From Escherichia phage vB_EcoM_SYGD1: a stretch of DNA of 64,000 nucleotides. The stretch lies in the sequence record MW883059. One strand, 5' to 3'. This document shows positions 38,661-58,450 of the stretch, piece after piece. How positions within the stretch are numbered: the first letter of the stretch is position 1; each line of letters begins with the position of its first letter. A model generated the notes under the pieces. That model saw only the letters and a program-made list of their open reading frames with translations. It was not told the DNA's origin and made no database searches. A program made the position numbers and the translations under genes.

Positions 38661-38690
38661 GTTTACACGGGGTTTTAGTTGTGATACTAT
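38661..38690 (+). promoter_or_regulatory. T4-type early promoter cassette
   Basis: GTTTAC at 38661, extended -10 tgtgatactat; preceded by AT-rich UP-like tcacaaagtt. Confidence 0.6.
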
Positions 38691-38726
38691 TACCCTATCA
38701 AAACAAATGAGTGATTGGAGAATAAA

Positions 38727-38999
38727 ATGAAAACATTTAAAGAATTTATCAATGAAGCTACTTTTAACGAAAAAGTAAAAATTAGCAAAGCTGTCAAGAC
38801 TTTGATTGCTGACATCAATTACCTATATGATATTGATTTAACTGACTATGTAACAGTTGGTAACAAACGTAACTATTTCGTGTTTGACATCTCTGAACTT
38901 GACCAGAATCAAATTAACAACATTGAGCGTTTTGCTAATGATAGGGGTCTTCGACACGAGCCTGGTGGCTATAAAAAATACGCAATTTATTTAAAATGA
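38727..38999 (+). CDS. internal-protein-like protein with capsid-targeting-like N-terminus
   Basis: ORF track 38715 (TTG); ATG at 38727 after SD ggag; N-terminus MKTFKEFINEA fits the internal-protein targeting peptide consensus. Confidence 0.55.
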   Translation: MKTFKEFINEATFNEKVKISKAVKTLIADINYLYDIDLTDYVTVGNKRNYFVFDISELDQNQINNIERFANDRGLRHEPGGYKKYAIYLK

Positions 39000-39029: not shown

Positions 39030-39059
39030 TATCTCATCAAAATTAATTAGGAAAATAAA

Positions 39060-39371
39060 ATGAAAACATTTAAAGAATTTATCAATGAAGCGGCTGCTGC
39101 ACCAAAGACATTCGTTATTAATACTCAAGCGAGTCTTGATGATGAGTACGCGGAGGCAATTCTGAAGTCACTTGCTAAGAACGGCGTTGAAGTAATTGCT
39201 TCGGACTTTAAGAAAGGGGCTTCCGAGATGTTTATTTCTATAACTAAAGGATCTAAAGCTAAGATTAAATCATCATTCGGAGTTGCTCGTACCGATCAAA
39301 TCGACAATCATGACTTTAAACAAACTGGTGCTAAACGGCAGAATACGATTGCATCACGCGGAATAAAATAG
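39060..39371 (+). CDS. internal-protein-like protein with capsid-targeting-like N-terminus
   Basis: ORF track 103 aa; N-terminus MKTFKEFINEA identical at nucleotide level to the preceding gene for 33 nt. Confidence 0.55.
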   Translation: MKTFKEFINEAAAAPKTFVINTQASLDDEYAEAILKSLAKNGVEVIASDFKKGASEMFISITKGSKAKIKSSFGVARTDQIDNHDFKQTGAKRQNTIASRGIK

Positions 39372-42582: not shown

Positions 42583-42610
42583 GCCCCGACCGAAAGGTTG
42601 GGGCTTTTTG
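42583..42610 (+). terminator. Intrinsic terminator
   Basis: GCCCCGACC-GAAA-GGTTGGGGC followed by ttttt. Confidence 0.7.
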
Positions 42611-42658: not shown

Positions 42659-43117
42659 ATGAAATCATATGCTCAATTTTTAAATGAAGCATCCGCTTCA
42701 GATGTTCGCGCTGTAGCAACTGCTGCTATTAAAGCTGGTAAATATTCTTATAAAGATGCTTCTGACGAATCTCGGTACAAGTTCTACGACGATATGAGAG
42801 CTGAAGGCTTTGTGGGTAACTATGTTACCACCGCCTGGAAAAGCCTGGTTGCTACTGGTGCGGCTTTCGAAAAACCTTCTGGTAAACCTGCTCCTAAGGC
42901 TGACCCTAAAGCAGCACAAGAAAAAAATATTGCTAAAGGAATTATTTCTAGGTATGAAGCAATTCTTAAAGAACTTTTGGTAATTAAGACCGAAGGCCAG
43001 AAACTTGCGCGAGCTCATAGTTTCAAAGATAACCCACATGCTCATGACCTAGAGTATGTTGAAGATCTCCAAAAAATCATCAAAGACCGCATTTGGTCTG
43101 CTAAACAAATTAAATAA
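42659..43117 (+). CDS. internal-protein-like protein with capsid-targeting-like N-terminus
   Basis: ORF track 152 aa; N-terminus MKSYAQFLNEA; SD aggaaataag. Confidence 0.5.
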   Translation: MKSYAQFLNEASASDVRAVATAAIKAGKYSYKDASDESRYKFYDDMRAEGFVGNYVTTAWKSLVATGAAFEKPSGKPAPKADPKAAQEKNIAKGIISRYEAILKELLVIKTEGQKLARAHSFKDNPHAHDLEYVEDLQKIIKDRIWSAKQIK

Positions 43118-43125
43118 CATTCTTA

Positions 43126-43152
43126 GCCCCAGCCGAAAGGTTGGGGCTTTTG
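43126..43152 (+). terminator. Intrinsic terminator (near-copy of the one at 42583)
   Basis: GCCCCAGCC-GAAA-GGTTGGGGC followed by tttt. Confidence 0.7.
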
Positions 43153-43285
43153 GTATCTAGGCCTTTCTGGACCTCTCTAGGCATCATTTAGTTTATACCC
43201 TTTATAATATATTATCCTATCCTTTAATTGCCCATCCCTGCCCTAGAATTCCCTAAAACTTTTTAAAAATTTTTTTCACAAAACG

Positions 43286-43315
43286 GTTTACATCCCCGTT
43301 CTTCCATGGTACTAT
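43286..43315 (+). promoter_or_regulatory. T4-type early promoter cassette
   Basis: UP-like tttttcacaaaac, GTTTAC at 43286, -10 tggtactatac. Confidence 0.6.
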
Positions 43316-43359
43316 ACAACTATCAACTACTGATACAGAAAAACAACTTGGAGAATGAA

Positions 43360-43623
43360 ATGGATAATTACGGCGAACTGTTCAACTTCTTTATGAAATG
43401 CGTTTCAGAAGATTTCGGTCGTACAGTGAATGATATTAAAGTTATCGGTCCTGATCATCCGATGTTTGAAACTTACGCAGTAATGGGTAATGAAGATGGT
43501 CAGTGGTATACTGTAAAGGTTGTGATTAACATGTTCACTGCTGAAGGTTATGTTAAACTGTCTTCTAAAGTTTACCATGATAATGATGAAATTGCAGAAG
43601 AATATTTCAATAATATGAAATAA
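43360..43623 (+). CDS. hypothetical protein
   Basis: ORF track 43306 would begin upstream of the promoter -10; ATG at 43360 follows SD ggag. Confidence 0.45.
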   Translation: MDNYGELFNFFMKCVSEDFGRTVNDIKVIGPDHPMFETYAVMGNEDGQWYTVKVVINMFTAEGYVKLSSKVYHDNDEIAEEYFNNMK

Positions 43624-43691
43624 ATGTGTACAAACGCCAAGGACGGTGTTATTATAGATTTATCAAAACAATCACAGAAGCGGAGAAATAA

Positions 43692-43868
43692 ATGACTACT
43701 TTAACTATTTGGTTTGACGAAAATGAAGAAACATACTGTGTGAACATTGATGAAAGTCCAATGCCTGACTTTGAATCTTCAGATAAGAAGTCGGTTATAT
43801 CTTGGGCTGAAGGTTATAAAGCAGCAAAAGGCGACGTTAAAATAGTTTATAAACTCTTTGGAGTATAA
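43692..43868 (+). CDS. small hypothetical protein (58 aa)
   Basis: not in ORF track (below 60 aa); ATG with SD cggag 7 nt upstream; hand translation MTTLTIWFDENEETYCVNIDESPMPDF... Confidence 0.35.
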   Translation: MTTLTIWFDENEETYCVNIDESPMPDFESSDKKSVISWAEGYKAAKGDVKIVYKLFGV

Positions 43869-43911
43869 TACTCCCACGGATTTTAAATCTTAATCAACCT
43901 AAGGAAATACT

Positions 43912-44505
43912 ATGAACACACTGAAGAAAATTGTTGAGTTTATTCGCACTAAACTTGGTTCTGCTATGGCTAAAAATCTATCTGTTGAAGAACAGTATAC
44001 TGCTGCAGCAGCAAAACTACTTGATAAAATTAAAGATCTAAAAACTGCTTCTGTTAAATCTATTAATGAAGAAAAACGTATTCGTGAACTTATTGTCGAA
44101 AAGAATCGACAAGCTGAATCAAAAGAGCGTGAAATTCGCAAACTTCTTTCCGAAGGTCAAGATGTAACAATGCACGCTAAACTCGGTTTGCTATATCGTC
44201 GAACAGCTGAGCAGTTGACTACTAAAGCTGATGGTTATGCTGAAATGCGAATTGAAATCGCCAAGAAAGTAGTTGAGTTAGATGATGCTCGCCAAGAACT
44301 TGCAGTTAAATTGGAATATATCCGTGAAACTCGTGCGGCAAATGCCCTTGGAATTAGTACTGCCGATGATGTAGTTGAAATTGCAGCACTGACTAAGGTT
44401 GATATTGAAGATACCCTTGCTCGAGTTGAAACTTTTAACGGCAATATTTCTGGGGTTGAAACTACCTCTGCCGATGTCCAGGAATATATTAATTCTCTGA
44501 AATAA
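43912..44505 (+). CDS. coiled-coil protein
   Basis: ORF track 197 aa; long heptad-like helical stretches. Confidence 0.5.
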
Positions 44506-44508
44506 TGA

Positions 44509-44533
44509 TAAGGGGCTTCGGCCCCTATTACTT
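44509..44533 (+). terminator. Hairpin, weak terminator
   Basis: AGGGGC-TTCG-GCCCCT followed by attactt. Confidence 0.4.
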
Positions 44534-44546
44534 GGAGTAAATAGGA

Positions 44547-45155
44547 ATGAAAATGCAAAGTGATTTCAATTCAATGTTTGAAGAGTTCCAAAGACAGGTT
44601 GATGTTCCAGACCAATTACTAAATGCTCTTAAACGTATGGCAGAAGGACGTAATTACTATTGGGGGTCTTCATATGAAACTGATGAAAGTCTTTCTGGAA
44701 GATTTTCTAGAGGTAAAAAGTCTTTAATACGTCCTGGAATACTCATTAAAAGTATTGAATCAATTCATTCATTGACGTGTGATTTTGATGTTGAATTTAC
44801 TGATTTCATTTCTCCTGAATGGACGGTTTGTTATTTAAATGACGATTATGATTATCTTGGCGTTTATAGTTTAAGTGACGCATGGTTTAAACGTAATTTA
44901 CAAAAGTCAAATTTGTTCTATATTGATACTACGGTAAAATTTCAGGGAAAGAAATATTTCTTTACTCTTATAGTTGATTCTGAAACAAAGCATGAAAATA
45001 AACGTATTCTTAGTAAAAAGAATATCTTAACTATTGTTGATGATCTTTTTGATAAATTCGTGGAAAATCCTAATTTTGAAAGCGATTTATTATTAGAAAA
45101 ATTTGTTAAGGAATGTAGAGAATATGTCAAAGCCATCACTATACCTTCCAAGTAA
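44547..45155 (+). CDS. hypothetical protein
   Basis: ORF track 202 aa. Confidence 0.5.
   Translation: MKMQSDFNSMFEEFQRQVDVPDQLLNALKRMAEGRNYYWGSSYETDESLSGRFSRGKKSLIRPGILIKSIESIHSLTCDFDVEFTDFISPEWTVCYLNDDYDYLGVYSLSDAWFKRNLQKSNLFYIDTTVKFQGKKYFFTLIVDSETKHENKRILSKKNILTIVDDLFDKFVENPNFESDLLLEKFVKECREYVKAITIPSK
45099..45114 (+). repeat. 16-bp direct repeat aaatttgttaaggaat, copy 1
   Basis: exact copy also at 45478..45493. Confidence 0.6.
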
Positions 45156-45519
45156 ACCTGTGAAGTATGAACCAAAGCGTCAGCTAATTTCTACTGATGT
45201 ATTAATAGGTCCTGTTATACTCATATCATTTGTAATTCTATTGATTATTGGAGGTGTTTTAGATGTTATGACTGATATTGATTCTGGCGAAATACTTGTG
45301 TTAATGCTAATTCTTCCATTAATAGTTCCACTTTTATTAGTACCTGTAAATTGGGTAGGATACTGGTATCAAGGAAGACATTATCGTAAACGCGTACGCG
45401 AATGGAAAGCTCAGTGTAAAAAGATTAAAAAGGAACACCAGCTTAAACTTGATATGCATGAATTTGACGAAATTATGAAATTTGTTAAGGAATCACGATG
45501 CAAAAGCCAAACTAAATAA
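45124..45519 (+). CDS. two-helix membrane protein
   Basis: ORF track 45103 (TTG inside the repeat); first ATG at 45124; two hydrophobic helices. Confidence 0.45.
   Translation: MSKPSLYLPSKPVKYEPKRQLISTDVLIGPVILISFVILLIIGGVLDVMTDIDSGEILVLMLILPLIVPLLLVPVNWVGYWYQGRHYRKRVREWKAQCKKIKKEHQLKLDMHEFDEIMKFVKESRCKSQTK
45478..45493 (+). repeat. 16-bp direct repeat aaatttgttaaggaat, copy 2
   Basis: exact copy of 45099..45114. Confidence 0.6.
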
Positions 45520-45859
45520 AGTCAAATATTCGCTTCCTGAGTCATTTTTAATTTTTGCTGTGGCGTTGGCTGCAGCTCTTGCGGGTAGTCTTTTTGGATT
45601 GTTAATTGACTGTCTTATTTTAAACATCGACGGCACAGTAAATATAATAGAAGTTTGGAGTGAACTTCGCTATACTAAAATTATTTCATTATTTTCATTC
45701 TTTTGTATCATTCTATATTTTCATTATGATAATTTTAAAATAAATTGGCAAAGAAAAAAGGATTACAAAATACAATTAAAAGAATATAATAGCTACATGT
45801 CTTATATTGAAAATGAATCAATGAAAGAGTTTGTGATTGATTGCAGGAAATTAAAATGA
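45482..45859 (+). CDS. two-helix membrane protein, no ATG start available
   Basis: ORF track 125 aa beginning with TTG inside the repeat; no in-frame ATG until the C-terminus; hydrophobic helices present. Confidence 0.35.
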   Translation: MLRNHDAKAKLNKVKYSLPESFLIFAVALAAALAGSLFGLLIDCLILNIDGTVNIIEVWSELRYTKIISLFSFFCIILYFHYDNFKINWQRKKDYKIQLKEYNSYMSYIENESMKEFVIDCRKLK

Positions 45860-46296
45860 AAACATTATCAGCTGGTATTATCTTTATGACAGAAGATAAA
45901 GATTTATTTATGGGACGAGTTACTGGTTCTCGTAAGCCTGGAATGATGGCACATCGCTGGGATATTCCAAAGGGGCGTGTAGAAAATTCTGATTTAAGCG
46001 CATTAGATGCAGCACGAAGAGAATGCTTAGAAGAGACCGGTTTTAGCAATTATAATCCAGACCTTCTAGAAGACCTAGGTGTATTTAAATATTCTAGTAA
46101 TAAAGACTTACAGTTATTTTATTATACGATTCCAGTAGAGCATGAGATGTTTAGAAATTGCCACTGCGAGTCTTATTTTGAAAATAAAGATGGCGTTATG
46201 ATTCCAGAGATGGATGCTTTTGCTCTTATTCCTCGTACTCAGTGGCAATATGTGATGGGTCCTTCACTTTACCGAATAATGAACAGCCTCTTTTAA
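45841..46296 (+). CDS. nudE: Nudix hydrolase
   Basis: ORF track 151 aa; Nudix box GRVENSDLSALDAARRECLEETGF; position upstream of e as T4 nudE. Confidence 0.8.
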   Translation: MQEIKMKTLSAGIIFMTEDKDLFMGRVTGSRKPGMMAHRWDIPKGRVENSDLSALDAARRECLEETGFSNYNPDLLEDLGVFKYSSNKDLQLFYYTIPVEHEMFRNCHCESYFENKDGVMIPEMDAFALIPRTQWQYVMGPSLYRIMNSLF

Positions 46297-46827
<531 letters not shown>

Positions 46828-46831
46828 AGTT

Positions 46832-46862
46832 GTTTACTTTCTCCAAGTAACTGTGATAGTAT
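46832..46862 (+). promoter_or_regulatory. T4-type early promoter cassette
   Basis: GTTTAC at 46832, -10 tgtgatagtat. Confidence 0.55.
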
Positions 46863-46887
46863 ATTCACAGTTACTTGGAGGGATAAA

Positions 46888-47304
46888 ATGACTCGTATTA
46901 ATTTGACTTTAGTATCTGAACTTGCTGATCAACATTTAATCGCAGAATACCGTGAACTGCCGCGTGTTTTTGGTATAGTTCGTAAACATGTTGCAAATGG
47001 TAAGCGGGTTAAAGATTTTAAAATATCTTCCGAGTTTATTTTAGGTTCTGGTCATGTCACGTTCTTTTACGATAAGTTAGAATTTTTGCGAAAGCGTCAA
47101 TCAGACATTATAACGGAATGCTTAAAACGCGGATTCAGTATAAAAGATACTGAAGTTCCTGACATCAGTGATATTCCAGTAGAATGGAAAAATGATTATA
47201 ATCCATGCAAATCAGCTATTAGGTTGAGTCAACAACGACTCGATGAAAAAATTTTAATGAAGCCACACTGGTACAAGTATTACGGCAAAAATATTTACAT
47301 TTAA
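46888..47304 (+). CDS. denV: endonuclease V, pyrimidine dimer DNA glycosylase
   Basis: ORF track 138 aa; [17 protein letters not shown]...WYKYYGK recognisable as T4 DenV. Confidence 0.9.
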
Positions 47305-47401
47305 ATAACATGGGAATAACCTGGACCTCATGATTCTATGAGGGATTCCCGCCAACCTGTAATAAGGTCGAGCCCAAGTGCGGTAATGGGTAAATACAGA
47401 A

Positions 47402-47989
47402 ATGGACAATTCATGCGCCACGGAATGGCCCAAATTTAGAGATAACAAAATGAGAACATTTTTAACTGGTCCTTATCTATCCCTGATGAATGCTTTTACA
47501 CACCATTCTGATGCTAGAGTAGAAGAAATTTGTAAAAACGAATATATCCTGCCATTTGAAGACTTACTTAAGCAGTATTGCACACTTCGACTAGATGGTG
47601 GACGTCAATCCGGTAAATCAATTGCAGTAACTAATTTTGCCGCTAATTGGTTGTATGACGGTGGAACAGTTATTGTTCTTTCTAATACTTCAGCTTATGC
47701 TAAAATTTCTGCAGATAACATCAAAAAGGAATTTTCGCGTTATTCTAATGATGATATACGTTTTCGTTTATTTACTGATTCTGTGCGTAGTTTTATTGGT
47801 AATAAAGGAAGCAAGTTCAGAGGTTTATCTCTTTCGCGAATTTTATATATAATTGATGAGCCTGTCAAATCTCCTGATATGGATAAGATTTATGATGCTC
47901 ATATTGACACTGTACAGTACTGCTGCAATAGTAAATGTTGCATTGGTGGTATTACTCGTCCTCAATTTTTTGTGATTGGAATGCAATGA
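47402..47989 (+). CDS. small P-loop NTPase-like protein
   Basis: ORF track 195 aa; Walker A-like GGRQSGKS and Walker B-like ILYIIDE. Confidence 0.5.
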   Translation: MDNSCATEWPKFRDNKMRTFLTGPYLSLMNAFTHHSDARVEEICKNEYILPFEDLLKQYCTLRLDGGRQSGKSIAVTNFAANWLYDGGTVIVLSNTSAYAKISADNIKKEFSRYSNDDIRFRLFTDSVRSFIGNKGSKFRGLSLSRILYIIDEPVKSPDMDKIYDAHIDTVQYCCNSKCCIGGITRPQFFVIGMQ

Positions 47990-56307: not shown

Positions 56308-56769
56308 ATGATTATTAATGAAAGCTCTTGGCACTATAAATTATTCAAAATGTTTAATGATGAATGGAAACGACCTAAGACACTGTGCGCGTATTTTTGG
56401 TCTATTGTTATTCCTACATTTTTCGTTTCTTTTTTCGGATGTACTATACTCGCAGGTCTAACTATCATCTGCGCAGAAATCATGCAGAAATGGCTTATTT
56501 TTGGTAGTTTATGGACTCTTATTCCATCAGCATTTATACTTGCCATTTTGCTTGTTTTACTTATTATTGGTTCATTTGTTATTCCTGCACAACTGCATGA
56601 AAAATATAAAGATTATAAATGGAAAAAGGATTATACTTTACATGTAGAAAATATTGATAGGGCGTATAAAGGTTTACCTCCTATTAAACCCAAGAAATCT
56701 ATTATCGTCGAATTTTTAAAAGCTCGTAAAGCTAAAGTATGTCCTGTTATTGAATATAAGGCTGAATGA
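56308..56769 (+). CDS. integral membrane protein (3-4 predicted helices)
   Basis: ORF track 153 aa; long hydrophobic stretches. Confidence 0.5.
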   Translation: MIINESSWHYKLFKMFNDEWKRPKTLCAYFWSIVIPTFFVSFFGCTILAGLTIICAEIMQKWLIFGSLWTLIPSAFILAILLVLLIIGSFVIPAQLHEKYKDYKWKKDYTLHVENIDRAYKGLPPIKPKKSIIVEFLKARKAKVCPVIEYKAE

Positions 56770-57779
56770 TGAAAACAGTAATGAAAAGCTATTTTGGTAG
56801 TCATCTTTATGGAACTTCTACCCCAGAATCTGATGTAGATTTTAAAGAAATTTTTGTTCCTCCTGCTCGTGATATTCTTATCGGAAACGTCAAAGAGCAC
56901 ATGAGTAAAAACACCAACAACACATCATCTAAAAACACTAAAGATGATATTGACCACGAATTGTATAGTCTTAAGTATTTCTTTAAATTAGCAGCAGATG
57001 GTGAAACCGTAGCATTGGATATGCTTCACACTCCACCTGAACTAGTGGTTAAATCTGATTTGCCTGATGTGTGGAAGTTTATTCAAGACAACCGTTCTCG
57101 TTTTTATACGACTAACATGAAATCCTATTTAGGATATGTCCGTAAGCAAGCTTCTAAATACGGTGTCAAGGGTTCTCGTTTGGCTGCATTACGTGATGTA
57201 TTGAAAGTAGTTAATCAAATCCCTGAGCAATGGGTTGATTACCAAGAAGACGGTTCCATTAAGCAGCGTCGTACTAAAGTTGAAGATATTAAGCATCGTC
57301 TTCCAAAAAACGAATTCTGTGAATGGGTGTTCCATGATCATGAGAAAACAGGCCCACAAACGTTCTATACTGTATTGGGTCGTAAATATCAGACAACGCT
57401 TTCTCTTATTGAGCTTAAGCAGTCACTGAACAAATTAAATGCTGAATATGGTGAACGCGCTCGTAAGGCCGAAGCCAATGAAGGCATCGACTGGAAAGCT
57501 CTGAGCCATGCTTGTCGTGGTGGACTTCAACTATTGGAAATTTACAAAACTGGTGACTTGGTTTATCCACTTCAAGACGCTCCATTTATTCTCGACGTGA
57601 AGTTGGGTAAACATCCATTTAAAACAGTTCAAGAGTTTTTGGAAGATGTGGTCGATCAAGTAGAAGCAGCATCTACTGAAGCTTCTAAGAACGGTATGCA
57701 GCAAAAAGTAGACATGAGTTTCTGGGATGACTTCCTTGAGAAGGTGTATCTCGAAAACCATCGAAGTTATTATAAATGA
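56766..57779 (+). CDS. protein with N-terminal Pol-beta-type nucleotidyltransferase motif
   Basis: ORF track 337 aa; FGSHLYGTSTPESDVDF fits the minimal NTase signature G[SG]x9-13 DxD close to the N-terminus; large helical C-terminal region. Confidence 0.55.
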   Translation: MMKTVMKSYFGSHLYGTSTPESDVDFKEIFVPPARDILIGNVKEHMSKNTNNTSSKNTKDDIDHELYSLKYFFKLAADGETVALDMLHTPPELVVKSDLPDVWKFIQDNRSRFYTTNMKSYLGYVRKQASKYGVKGSRLAALRDVLKVVNQIPEQWVDYQEDGSIKQRRTKVEDIKHRLPKNEFCEWVFHDHEKTGPQTFYTVLGRKYQTTLSLIELKQSLNKLNAEYGERARKAEANEGIDWKALSHACRGGLQLLEIYKTGDLVYPLQDAPFILDVKLGKHPFKTVQEFLEDVVDQVEAASTEASKNGMQQKVDMSFWDDFLEKVYLENHRSYYK

Positions 57780-57780
57780 T

Positions 57781-57808
57781 AGGGAGCCTTCGGGCTCCTT
57801 TTTTTTAT
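57781..57808 (+). terminator. Intrinsic terminator
   Basis: AGGGAGCC-TTCG-GGCTCCT followed by ttttttttattt. Confidence 0.7.
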
Positions 57809-57830
57809 TTCAAAAATTTTTCACAAAGTT

Positions 57831-58401: not shown

Positions 58402-58428
58402 AGGGGCCCTAGAGGTCCCCTTTTTTAT
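58402..58428 (+). terminator. Intrinsic terminator
   Basis: GGGGCCC-TAGA-GGTCCCC (one mismatch) followed by ttttttattt. Confidence 0.65.
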
Positions 58429-58450
58429 TTCAAAAATTTTTCACAAAGTG

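Follow-up and report, generated by a model that had tools for sequence, protein, structure and literature searches.

Which gene is encoded at 45482-45859 on the + strand, where an open reading frame without an early ATG begins at a TTG inside the second copy of a 16-bp direct repeat, and what does the repeat stand for? In the window, i.e. the whole stretch of 64,000 nucleotides analyzed here, the initial annotation had placed the exact 16-mer AAATTTGTTAAGGAAT at 45099 and 45478, and these are indeed its just two occurrences, both on the + strand, even when two mismatches are allowed. Both copies encode KFVKE as described, the first (45099..45114) in the tail of a 202-aa open reading frame at 44547-45155 (ending in LLLEKFVKECREYVKAITIPSK) and the second (45478..45493) in the tail of the reading frame at 45124-45519 (ending in EIMKFVKESRCKSQTK). 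It also holds that the mechanically called frames open at TTG 45103 and TTG 45482, that the first membrane protein frame has an ATG at 45124 and that the second lacks an early one, its first in-frame ATG being codon 106 at 45797.

The window represents the early region of a Tequatrovirus (T4-like), with the genes in the order e.6, e.5, e.4, e.3, nudE, lysozyme e, denV; e.2 is absent from it. Gene e.5 (44547..45155, +) encodes a soluble 202-aa protein of the T4 Y06P family (phrog_2607, E = 5.7e-110) with no transmembrane segments in the hydropathy profile. It is named e.5 in the annotation of PP01, T4 and PST, and its Mosigvirus homolog carries Pfam PF26876 (Phage_T4_Y06P) on record. Its tail, ending in EKFVKECREYVKAITIPSK, shares 32 nt with the start of e.4. 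Gene e.4 (45124..45519, +) encodes a membrane protein of the T4 Y06O family (phrog_2604, E = 1.3e-69 over residues 1-129), which has 131 aa here vs 130 aa in relatives. PF26873 is found on all of 99 e.4 homolog clusters; the local copy of Pfam does not contain it. In the local Pfam scan, e.3 and e.5 remained without a match and e.4 obtained a single one below threshold (DUF2207_C), and a literature search for the function of e.3 or e.4 yielded only irrelevant matches. Downstream, nudE (e.1; 45856..46296, +) encodes a Nudix hydrolase (Pfam NUDIX, E = 9.6e-14) and is annotated as nudE in relatives. Successive genes overlap by 32, 22 and 4 nt in the window, the e.4/e.3 overlap being 19 nt in relatives. 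T4 itself has the same genes, order and overlaps, namely e.3 (NP_049739, Y06N), e.4 (NP_049740, Y06O, PF26873) and e.5 (Y06P, PF26876), and it likewise carries both 16-mers 379 nt apart. The window differs from T4 in that e.3 is short of one base after codon 4, which puts its ATG out of frame, and in that e.4 ends in SQTK instead of the SQN/S seen in T4 and relatives.

Judged by its sequence, the start-less open reading frame is T4 gene e.3 (Y06N, with 120 aa in relatives), whose frame is disrupted by the loss of one A. In T4, PP01, W143, slur07, T2 and PST, the annotated start of e.3 is an ATG that matches position 45498 of the window, and all of 11 aligned Tequatrovirus homologs begin with the same eight residues, MQKPKLNK; the PP01 protein starts with MQKPKLNKAKYS. 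In the alignment, AAA at 45508..45510, in codons 4-5 of e.3 and within the e.4/e.3 overlap, stands opposite AAAA in most relatives and AAAG in T4, and at position 45509 all seven relatives that were fetched differ from the window. Because of this one-base deletion, only a five-codon remnant, MQKPN followed by a stop (45498..45515, +), can be read from the ATG, where the T4 family has an intact frame, and the end of e.4 is changed from SQN to SQTK, which lengthens that protein from 130 to 131 aa. The body of e.3 (45482..45859, +) lies in the -1 frame relative to ATG 45498. When the base is restored, it matches phrog_2330 over residues 1-118 (E = 5.1e-59) and is 94% identical to PP01 e.3, and its placement between e.4 and e.2/nudE, with a start overlapping the end of e.4, is that found in T4, PP01, T2 and PST. 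The suggestion that the second frame might be a decaying duplicate is contradicted by the DNA of 45196-45860, which is, the missing base aside, 100% identical to that of phage PST with its intact e.3. Two membrane helices had been claimed for each protein; e.4 shows two clear segments by hydropathy (31-49 and 57-75), and e.3 has one strong segment and a second hydrophobic stretch, IISLFSFFCIILYF, which is shorter and stays below the 19-residue threshold.

The deletion appears to be private to the window. Its 81-nt junction occurs in identical form in none of 493 phage records, a collection that does not contain the source genome and in which the best record reaches 95.3% over 20 kb, and every listed match spans 82 nt. 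A search of viral, metagenome and genome contigs with the three-A pattern gave no match, vs four for the four-A control, and exact look-up of the altered e.4 protein found none on record. The initial annotation had stated that a single continuous gene in relatives, indicative of a frameshift or sequencing error, would speak against its reading; a frameshift is what the comparison brought to light, but relatives contain two genes here. We arrive at a course of events in which an A would have been lost from a short A-run 10 nt downstream of ATG 45498, ribosomes starting there would stop after MQKPN, and the body of e.3 would be left in a frame open as far back as TTG 45482.

That e.3 starts at this TTG, as had been proposed, is not borne out, because a normal ATG, the annotated start in relatives, is present at 45498 with the canonical AAGGAA of repeat copy 2 situated 5 nt upstream. 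In relatives, the TTG lies 16 nt upstream of the ATG of the gene and is therefore out of frame; it is in frame with the e.3 body here only because of the private deletion. A functional e.3 with a slightly altered N-terminus could nevertheless be imagined, made either from TTG 45482 or through a -1 slip after ATG 45498. The frame is open from the TTG through the whole, undamaged body of the gene, and a -1 slip of the P-site tRNA on CCA-AAC beside the TAA stop would restore MQKPN-LNKVKY. We nevertheless regard such expression as quite improbable. The 20 nt upstream of the TTG (atttgacgaaattatgaaat) contain no purine-rich Shine-Dalgarno sequence (no GGAG, AGGA or GAGG), and the strong AAGGAA-N5-ATG just downstream would draw initiating ribosomes into the wrong frame. 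The next possible in-frame start after the TTG is GTG 45560, inside the first transmembrane segment. There is no X-XXY-YYZ slippery heptamer in ATG CAA AAG CCA AAC TAA, and the arrangement is found in 0 of 493 relatives, whereas a programmed event would be conserved; the aligned e.3 homologs are read from the ATG without a shift. The e.3 of this genome is not a gene that starts at TTG.

Two explanations fit the state of e.3 in this genome: an accessory gene that the phage can spare was knocked out very recently, or the consensus is wrong by a single base. Comparison of sequences does not tell the two apart. The second explanation, according to which e.3 is truly intact and no biological event took place, strikes us as a serious contender that we would rate somewhat below even. 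The deletion is private to one sequence and sits in a homopolymer run, the gene shows no further change with respect to the intact e.3 of PST, and nearly 500 relatives have an intact e.3, a sign that it is normally maintained. On the other hand, a run of four is short for a homopolymer error, and the assembly is otherwise clean. The e.3 deletion is the sole uncompensated frameshift in a coding sequence relative to slur07 in about 38 kb and the only small indel private to the window within 43000-47800. We detected no signature of homopolymer errors elsewhere in the window, the other candidate indel at 56931 being a defect of slur07 and the allele at 43152 a polymorphism shared with other phages. 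Genes of the array are disrupted in other genomes as well: UFV05 is missing e.3 and carries an in-frame e.4::e.2 fusion, truncated e.3 genes are present in other genomes, and e.2 of T4 itself is broken, all of which would fit with e.3 being dispensable. For annotation, the open reading frame should be labeled as frameshifted e.3, or the base call re-checked, instead of being entered as a TTG-initiated gene, and the odd C-terminus of e.4 is to be read as a side effect of the e.3 deletion.

If e.3 starts at 45498, what does the 16-mer mark? It could be a meaningless chance match in AT-rich DNA, all the more as a window of such composition is expected to contain about 1.5 exact 16-mer direct repeats and much of the DNA identity is explained by the shared peptide together with codon bias (given the pentapeptide, identity over the 15 coding bases arises from codon bias alone with P ~0.09). 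The two copies lie close to each other, however, and Markov shuffles predict only 0.07 exact direct repeats of at least 16 nt within 1 kb per window, with 7 of 100 shuffles containing one or more; a caveat is that the window holds nine close repeat pairs of such kind. Both copies are equivalently placed, in the tail of a gene just before the next start, and their 379-nt spacing is identical in T4, PP01, W143, slur07, T2 and IMG/VR contigs, so that the pair is not a chance match. We therefore consider coincidence practically negligible as an explanation; the conservation data already contradict it.

The 16-mer is part of a tail motif, F-[VI]-x-[ED]-x-R, that directly precedes the start of the next gene and ends e.5, e.4, e.3 and, in relatives, e.2, in Tequatrovirus as well as in Mosigvirus. 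Against coincidence, two genera thus have the motif at the ends of three or four genes in a row, and the window contains it nowhere else: all six frames contain exactly three occurrences, at the C-termini of e.5, e.4 and e.3, vs 0.8 anywhere and 0.0 at C-termini in shuffles. At the DNA level, the AAGGAA of copy 1 is located 10 nt upstream of the e.4 ATG, a sub-optimal spacing, and copy 2 holds the UAAGGA Shine-Dalgarno sequence of e.3. At the third junction, TGCAGGAAATTAAAATGA (45842..45859, +) combines the e.3 tail ending in CRKLK with an AGGAA Shine-Dalgarno sequence and the nudE ATG at 45856. In Mosigvirus, the same tail motif is present at all three junctions and the two DNA copies are only about 10/16 identical. 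Copy 1 reads caatttattatggaat there (QFIME), so AAGGA is not conserved at this site and the following tgtagagaatATGtcaaagcca is, and the AAGGAA-N5-ATG arrangement of copy 2 is conserved (aaggaaataagATG). The exact identity of the 16-mers in Tequatrovirus may be due to codon bias acting on a shared peptide or to local gene conversion. Taken together, the elements would form a boundary module in which the C-terminal tail of one gene overlaps the ATG and ribosome-binding site of its successor, the 16-mer being the best-conserved piece of the module. Translational coupling would be allowed by the overlap of the genes and may operate across the junctions.

Recurrence of the module could be explained by e.4 and e.3 being old tandem paralogs. 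When the two membrane proteins are aligned, as the initial annotation had recommended, BLASTP gives no significant similarity (E = 0.17) and profile comparison with hhalign does (110 columns, E = 2.9e-5, probability 74%), a result that needed the Mosigvirus e.3 sequence, as profiles from Tequatrovirus only reach 6.5% probability and match at the N-terminus only, and that belongs to a type of score which can be inflated between hydrophobic proteins. The best non-self family for e.3 among 38,880 PHROGs is that of e.4, matched over the full length, and both proteins share an MxKPxL N-terminus, a hydrophobic hairpin, a basic stretch and the tail. We consider e.4 and e.3 as probable old tandem paralogs on this moderate evidence, and a tandem duplication would then be the likely origin of the module. 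We also considered e.2, which does not qualify as a paralog: when its two-TM half is compared with the two profiles, similarity to e.3 is limited to the final 13 residues and there is none to e.4. Apart from the tail, e.5 and e.2 are unrelated to e.4/e.3, and because they share only this piece, the tail may be convergent or a functional peptide and not a relic of duplication. In the form F-[VI]-x-[ED]-C-R it could be a shared functional peptide, e.g. a common docking motif.

The pattern had originally been taken for a duplicated insertion junction. In spirit, the duplicated junction survives, as the motif sits at every boundary, e.4 and e.3 are probable paralogs and e.2 shows a crossover; the insertion does not. 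Were e.4 an inserted or mobile cassette between e.5 and e.3, the 16-mers would represent a duplicated target or a recombination junction, and they do bracket e.4 precisely in a 379-nt unit. An analogous repeat brackets the polymorphic e.2 cassette, and the stretch 45072-45532, identical to phage Lv5cm, has its ends near the two junctions. Yet e.4, which is confined to Tequatrovirus and Mosigvirus, occurs wherever e.5 and e.3 do, Mosigvirus included: its interior is found in 551 phage records vs 502 for e.5 and 498 for e.3, and no viral contig contains an e.5-16mer-e.3 deletion junction. Being never absent, e.4 is not an insertion. In addition, the mosaic breakpoints of SP21535 and PST fall inside e.4, and the N-termini of e.4 and e.3 are included in their similarity, as would be expected if a complete gene unit had been duplicated. 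An inserted e.4 is thus very improbable. The junctions were also examined as preferred mosaic breakpoints, an idea we dropped because only the block shared with Lv5cm ends near them and the breaks of SP21535 and PST lie within e.4.

The case is different for e.2. Relatives with e.2 have this gene bracketed by a repeat, of which the window retains only one copy, junction 3. In all three phages without e.2, e.3 carries an e.2-type tail, while in all five phages with e.2, e.3 ends in CRKI[KR] and e.2 in CRKLK, such that e.2 status agrees with the tail allele of e.3 in 8/8 loci. Comparison of these loci shows e.2 to be a gene apparently gained or lost via crossover in the repeated junction. Repeated junctions could accordingly act as short homologies in unequal recombination, as seen for e.2 and only as a possibility for e.4.

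We are rather confident that the locus is best explained by a combination of a frameshifted e.3, a repeated boundary module, e.4/e.3 tandem paralogs and junctions serving as recombination homologies. This makes the finding largely ordinary: a known gene, e.3, is frameshifted, and neighboring genes have a conserved tail motif. The accessory array of T4 can be described as a series of small membrane-protein genes with a common tail-and-start junction that marks gain and loss of e.2. Going further, one might speculate that the module of tail, ribosome-binding site and ATG is the coding counterpart of PeSLs, a reusable linker for in-frame duplication, deletion or swapping of small membrane-protein cassettes with downstream translation coupled. 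One case each of a polymorphic cassette (e.2), a probable tandem duplication (e.4/e.3) and an e.4::e.2 fusion (UFV05) points in this direction, and we hold the proposal to be possible and still rather doubtful.

PeSL elements are a known repeat system (PMC2839356; PMC4122927), and as regulatory cassettes they are characterized by a sigma-70-type early promoter, a stable stem-loop, an intergenic site and flanking genes affected by indels or replacement (PMC2839356). The e junctions resemble them in being short repeats at the edges of small genes that are non-essential and belong to a plastic region, and in that each closes with a Shine-Dalgarno sequence and the codon from which the next gene starts; junction 3 also brackets a gene that some close relatives have and others lack. 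With regard to flanking genes, the e.2 junction is consistent with PeSLs at 8/8 loci, and e.4, bracketed by the 16-mer pair, is never absent. Unlike PeSLs, the junctions lie inside overlapping coding sequence, have neither a sigma-70 promoter nor a stem-loop and code for a protein tail that is conserved. Of the promoter-like sites in the region, 17 in total vs 12.6 +/- 3.9 in shuffles, none overlaps a 16-mer, and terminator-like hairpins are absent from 45099-45130 and 45478-45520, the nearest one residing at 44511-44526 between e.6 and e.5. An identification of the 16-mer junctions as PeSLs was therefore discarded, there being no promoter, no stem-loop and no intergenic location. PeSL-like elements are present elsewhere in the window, e.g. 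at 57801/58421. Beside the known PeSL elements, the e.2 junction provides a small case of short coding homologies shaping plastic T4-like regions.

Another close repeat pair in the window, 38 nt in length and encoding MKTFKEFINEA, is found at 38721/39054. We take it to be the N-terminal sequence that the internal-protein genes of T-even phages, arranged in tandem, have in common, presumably the capsid-targeting sequence. These genes are similar to the e junctions in that consecutive small genes carry a near-identical coding end and ribosome-binding site that appear as close direct repeats. In the internal-protein genes, the shared piece is N-terminal and serves head targeting, whereas it is the C-terminal tail at the e junctions. 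Finally, translationally coupled overlapping genes occur in phage operons, and just as in these, the downstream start and its Shine-Dalgarno sequence are embedded in the 3' end of the upstream gene; what sets the e region apart is that its upstream tails encode the same peptide motif.

A 1.85-kb query around the locus matched 513 phage records, nearly all of them Tequatrovirus at 90-98% identity, and the window stems from a T4-like phage. The closest match in the phage collection, which does not include the source genome, reaches 95.3% over 20 kb. Gene names taken from curated relatives give the order e.6 (43912-44505), e.5 (44547-45155), e.4 (45124-45519), e.3 (ending at 45859), e.2 where present, nudE (45856-46296) and the lysozyme gene e (46333-46827), with denV at 46888-47304, all on the plus strand. 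UniProt entries Y06N and Y06O (T4 e.3 and e.4, the latter in Pfam PF26873) represent the same genes. Both had been described as encoding two-helix membrane proteins in the initial annotation; a hydropathy scan bears this out for e.4, with two clear hydrophobic segments; in e.3 a single strong segment is accompanied by a shorter hydrophobic stretch below the scan threshold. Homologs of e.3 and e.4 are named 'sulfurtransferase', 'DNA primase' or 'host specificity protein' in several public records, labels without sequence support that are probably propagated misannotations. Within 1.3 kb (44547-45860) three different phages are the closest relative in turn, a case of fine-scale mosaicism: SP21535 is identical to the window over 44547-45299, Lv5cm over 45072-45532 and PST, apart from a deletion described below, over 45196-45860.

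The 16-mer AAATTTGTTAAGGAAT occurs exactly twice in the window, on the plus strand at 45099 and 45478. As originally noted, each copy codes for KFVKE close to the upstream gene's C-terminus and contains a TTG that opens a mechanical ORF. The expected number of exact 16-mer pairs within 1 kb is 0.07 per window, and both copies are kept 379 nt apart in T4, PP01, W143, slur07, T2 and IMG/VR contigs. Similarity reaches past the 16 bases into the downstream starts ATGtcaAAGCCA (MSKP..) and ATGcaaAAGCCA (MQKP..). Because codon bias alone, given the shared peptide, yields a probability of ~0.09 for identical DNA over the 15 coding bases, and because the two counterparts in Mosigvirus are only ~10/16 identical, the exact identity of the Tequatrovirus copies adds little beyond the shared peptide. 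The tails read ..EKFVKECREY.. in e.5, ..MKFVKESRCK.. in e.4, ..KEFVIDCRKLK* in e.3 and, where present, ..SFITECRKLK* in e.2. An e.5-e.4-e.3 array is also found in Mosigvirus (e.4 ~52% identical), with ..EQFIMECREY.., ..MEFVKEIRCK.. and ..ENFIKECRK* at junctions 1 to 3, in each case immediately ahead of the following ATG. A six-frame search of the 64-kb window with F-[VI]-x-[ED]-[CSI]-R gives three matches, each at one of the consecutive C-termini of e.5, e.4 and e.3, vs 0.8 anywhere and none at C-termini in shuffles; as it was derived from these same tails, the counts speak for specificity to the array and not for independent significance. The Shine-Dalgarno sequence lies on K-E codons (AAG-GAA) at the e.4/e.3 junction and on R-K codons (AGG-AAA) at the e.3/e.2 and e.2/nudE junctions; at e.5/e.4 it is badly spaced, and Mosigvirus has no AAGGA there. 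This variable position relative to the motif, poor at e.5/e.4, suggests that the tail peptide and not only the ribosome-binding site is under constraint. The repeat is genuine and conserved, a junction module in a small array of probably paralogous genes. In two Mosigvirus loci (L010, 2010-2804; phage ST0, 2531-3327), e.3 is followed by three small paralogous genes instead of nudE, ending in WVSSSA(L/M)C*, WVASSHTC* and WVSSSYSC*; in ST0 the second of these is apparently frameshifted, and e.3 is unannotated in the record.

BLASTP revealed no significant similarity between e.4 and e.3 (E = 0.17). Among 38,880 PHROGs, the best non-self match of e.3 is the e.4 family, co-linear over the full length with E = 0.018. 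A first profile-profile comparison of the two was weak; with divergent Mosigvirus e.3 added, the profiles align end to end over 110 columns (E = 2.9e-5, probability 74%), bringing the MxKPxL of the N-terminus, the two hydrophobic segments and the tail at the C-terminus into register. We consider it likely that e.4 and e.3 arose by tandem duplication. Nothing is shared between e.2 and e.4. Because e.2 has only the last 13 residues in common with e.3 (E = 4.6e-4) and e.5, a soluble protein, only the tail with other array members, the tail behaves as a separate module.

In T4, PP01, W143, slur07, T2 and PST, the annotated relatives that were examined, e.3 starts at an ATG matching window position 45498, 5 nt downstream of AAGGAA within the second 16-mer copy. 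The relatives' protein has 120-124 aa and begins with MQKPKLNK, eight residues invariant in all 11 aligned Tequatrovirus homologs. At this junction the window reads GCC-AAA-CTA vs GCCAAAACTA in PP01 and W143 and GCCAAAGCTA in T4, one base being missing at 45508-45510. As a consequence, ATG 45498 reads MQKPN*, the e.3 body is in a frame open back to TTG 45482, and the overlapping e.4 ends in ..SQTK* instead of ..SQN*. It was correctly noted initially that the second ORF (45482-45859) has its first in-frame ATG only at codon 106 (45797); the TTG initiation offered as one option does not hold, since the frame reaches TTG 45482 only through the deletion and relatives start e.3 at the ATG. In relatives the TTG lies 16 nt 5' of the in-frame ATG and is therefore out of frame, no Shine-Dalgarno sequence was found before TTG 45482, and the next candidate starts of the shifted frame, ATT 45551 and GTG 45560, both lie within the first TM helix. 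For these reasons TTG initiation is an artefact of the deletion and not a feature of the gene; behind the ATG-less membrane-protein gene is a single-base frameshift, or a miscall, in a known gene of T4.

An 81-nt junction query has no identical match among 493 phage records, every listed match spanning 82 nt, and at the deletion position the window is unlike all seven relatives compared. The pattern with three A residues (A3) had no match in viral, metagenome or genome contigs, the A4 control pattern gave four matches, and an exact look-up did not find the altered e.4 protein (..SQTK*) on record. Except for the missing base, window and PST are 100% identical between 45196 and at least 45860, which speaks against the decaying duplicate proposed as an alternative; e.3 is not decaying. 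That the deletion occurs only once, and in a homopolymer stretch of an otherwise pristine, widely conserved gene, is suggestive of a sequencing error, which is quite possible, and yet a real mutation seems to us somewhat more probable. In the comparison with slur07 (~38 kb aligned), the e.3 deletion is the only uncompensated frameshift that the window has inside a conserved CDS; at the other candidate, 56931, it is slur07 that is broken. Within 43000-47800 no other small indel is confined to the window; the allele at 43152 is common to other phages. Both checks speak against an error-prone assembly. A real mutation that is tolerated finds support in disrupted genes of this array elsewhere: e.3 is truncated in several genomes and removed entirely in UFV05 by an in-frame e.4(1-30)::e.2 fusion, and T4's own e.2 is disrupted by two compensating frameshifts.

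The product in vB_EcoM-UFV05 (OP572230, 1501-1821) is a 106-aa chimera of e.4 residues 1-30 and the two-TM C-terminal half of e.2, joined where the first TM helices have a short PVT..SFV stretch in common; the remainder of e.4, the whole of e.3 and the N-terminal half of e.2 are deleted. The annotated e.2 of T4 (102 aa; NC_000866, 67490-67960) is the N-terminal part of the relatives' 162-aa gene, its first TM segment out of frame through the two 1-base indels, which leave 161 nt unannotated ahead of nudE; the C-terminal ..FITECRKLK* can still be read in frame 0. The e.3 alleles of phage LH2 (P0140) and of a further homolog (P0141) diverge or are truncated past about residue 85-92, beside an A-rich agaaaaaagg, and are additional frameshifted variants from other genomes. 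A private 1-base homopolymer frameshift (A4 vs A5 in the window) is present in slur07 (NC_028780, 35410-36419, corresponding to ~56769-57600), resulting in two CDSs where the window has one intact ORF; private homopolymer frameshifts in accessory genes thus also occur in other deposited T4-like genomes.

In e.2-plus phages, e.2 takes up 489 nt flanked by TG(C/T)AGGAAAAT(C/T)A(A/G)ATGA and TGCAGGAAATTAAAATGA. All five e.2-plus loci combine CRKI[KR]* on e.3 with CRKLK* on e.2, and e.3 carries the e.2-type tail CRKLK* in all three e.2-minus loci (window, PP01, T2), a pattern that is the signature of a crossover in the ~9-nt shared core. The junctions act in recombination for e.2 and seem not to do so for e.4. 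The proposal that the e.4 flanks form an insertion junction is not supported, as the interior of e.4 is no rarer than its neighbors (551 records vs 502 for e.5 and 498 for e.3) and no e.5-16mer-e.3 junction was found in viral contigs. Ordinary mosaic breakpoints showed no consistent coincidence with the junctions.

Boundary repeats of other, recognised kinds occur in the window. A 38-nt exact direct repeat (38721-38758 and 39054-39091) spans the Shine-Dalgarno sequence, ATG and opening 10 codons (MKTFKEFINEA) of two small genes in tandem (38727-38999, 39060-39371) and resembles the N-terminal targeting sequence that T-even internal proteins have in common; in this part the window has ~620 nt more than slur07, one extra gene copy. 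Repeats at 38681/39403 (21 nt) and 39015/39398 (17 nt), GTGATACTATTACCCTATCAA and GGGTAGTGATACTATTA, each preceded by gtttac and located ahead of three small genes in a row, resemble early-promoter regions that have been repeated. Stem-loop halves repeated at 42590/43133 (CCGAAAGGTTGGGGCTTTT) and a hairpin between e.6 and e.5 (44511-44526, GGGGCTTCGGCCCC) resemble terminators at gene boundaries.

Among described mechanisms for gene-boundary repeats in the plastic regions of T4-type phages, the PeSL comes closest, an intergenic unit of sigma-70 promoter, stem-loop, Shine-Dalgarno sequence and start codon that brings about insertions, deletions and replacements (PMC2839356). At 57801-57829 and 58421-58449 an exact repeat of 29 nt, TTTTTTATTTCAAAAATTTTTCACAAAGT, directly follows GC-rich stem-loops and directly precedes (t/g)gtttac, a PeSL-like layout of putative terminator and early promoter. 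The junctions of the e array share with PeSLs only the Shine-Dalgarno sequence and start codon and, in the case of e.2, the link to an indel. Unlike PeSLs they are coding, and neither promoter nor hairpin was found at the 16-mer junctions, so we reject their classification as PeSLs. The junction module is mildly interesting for the build of T4 accessory regions and stays inside the known kinds of phage genome plasticity.
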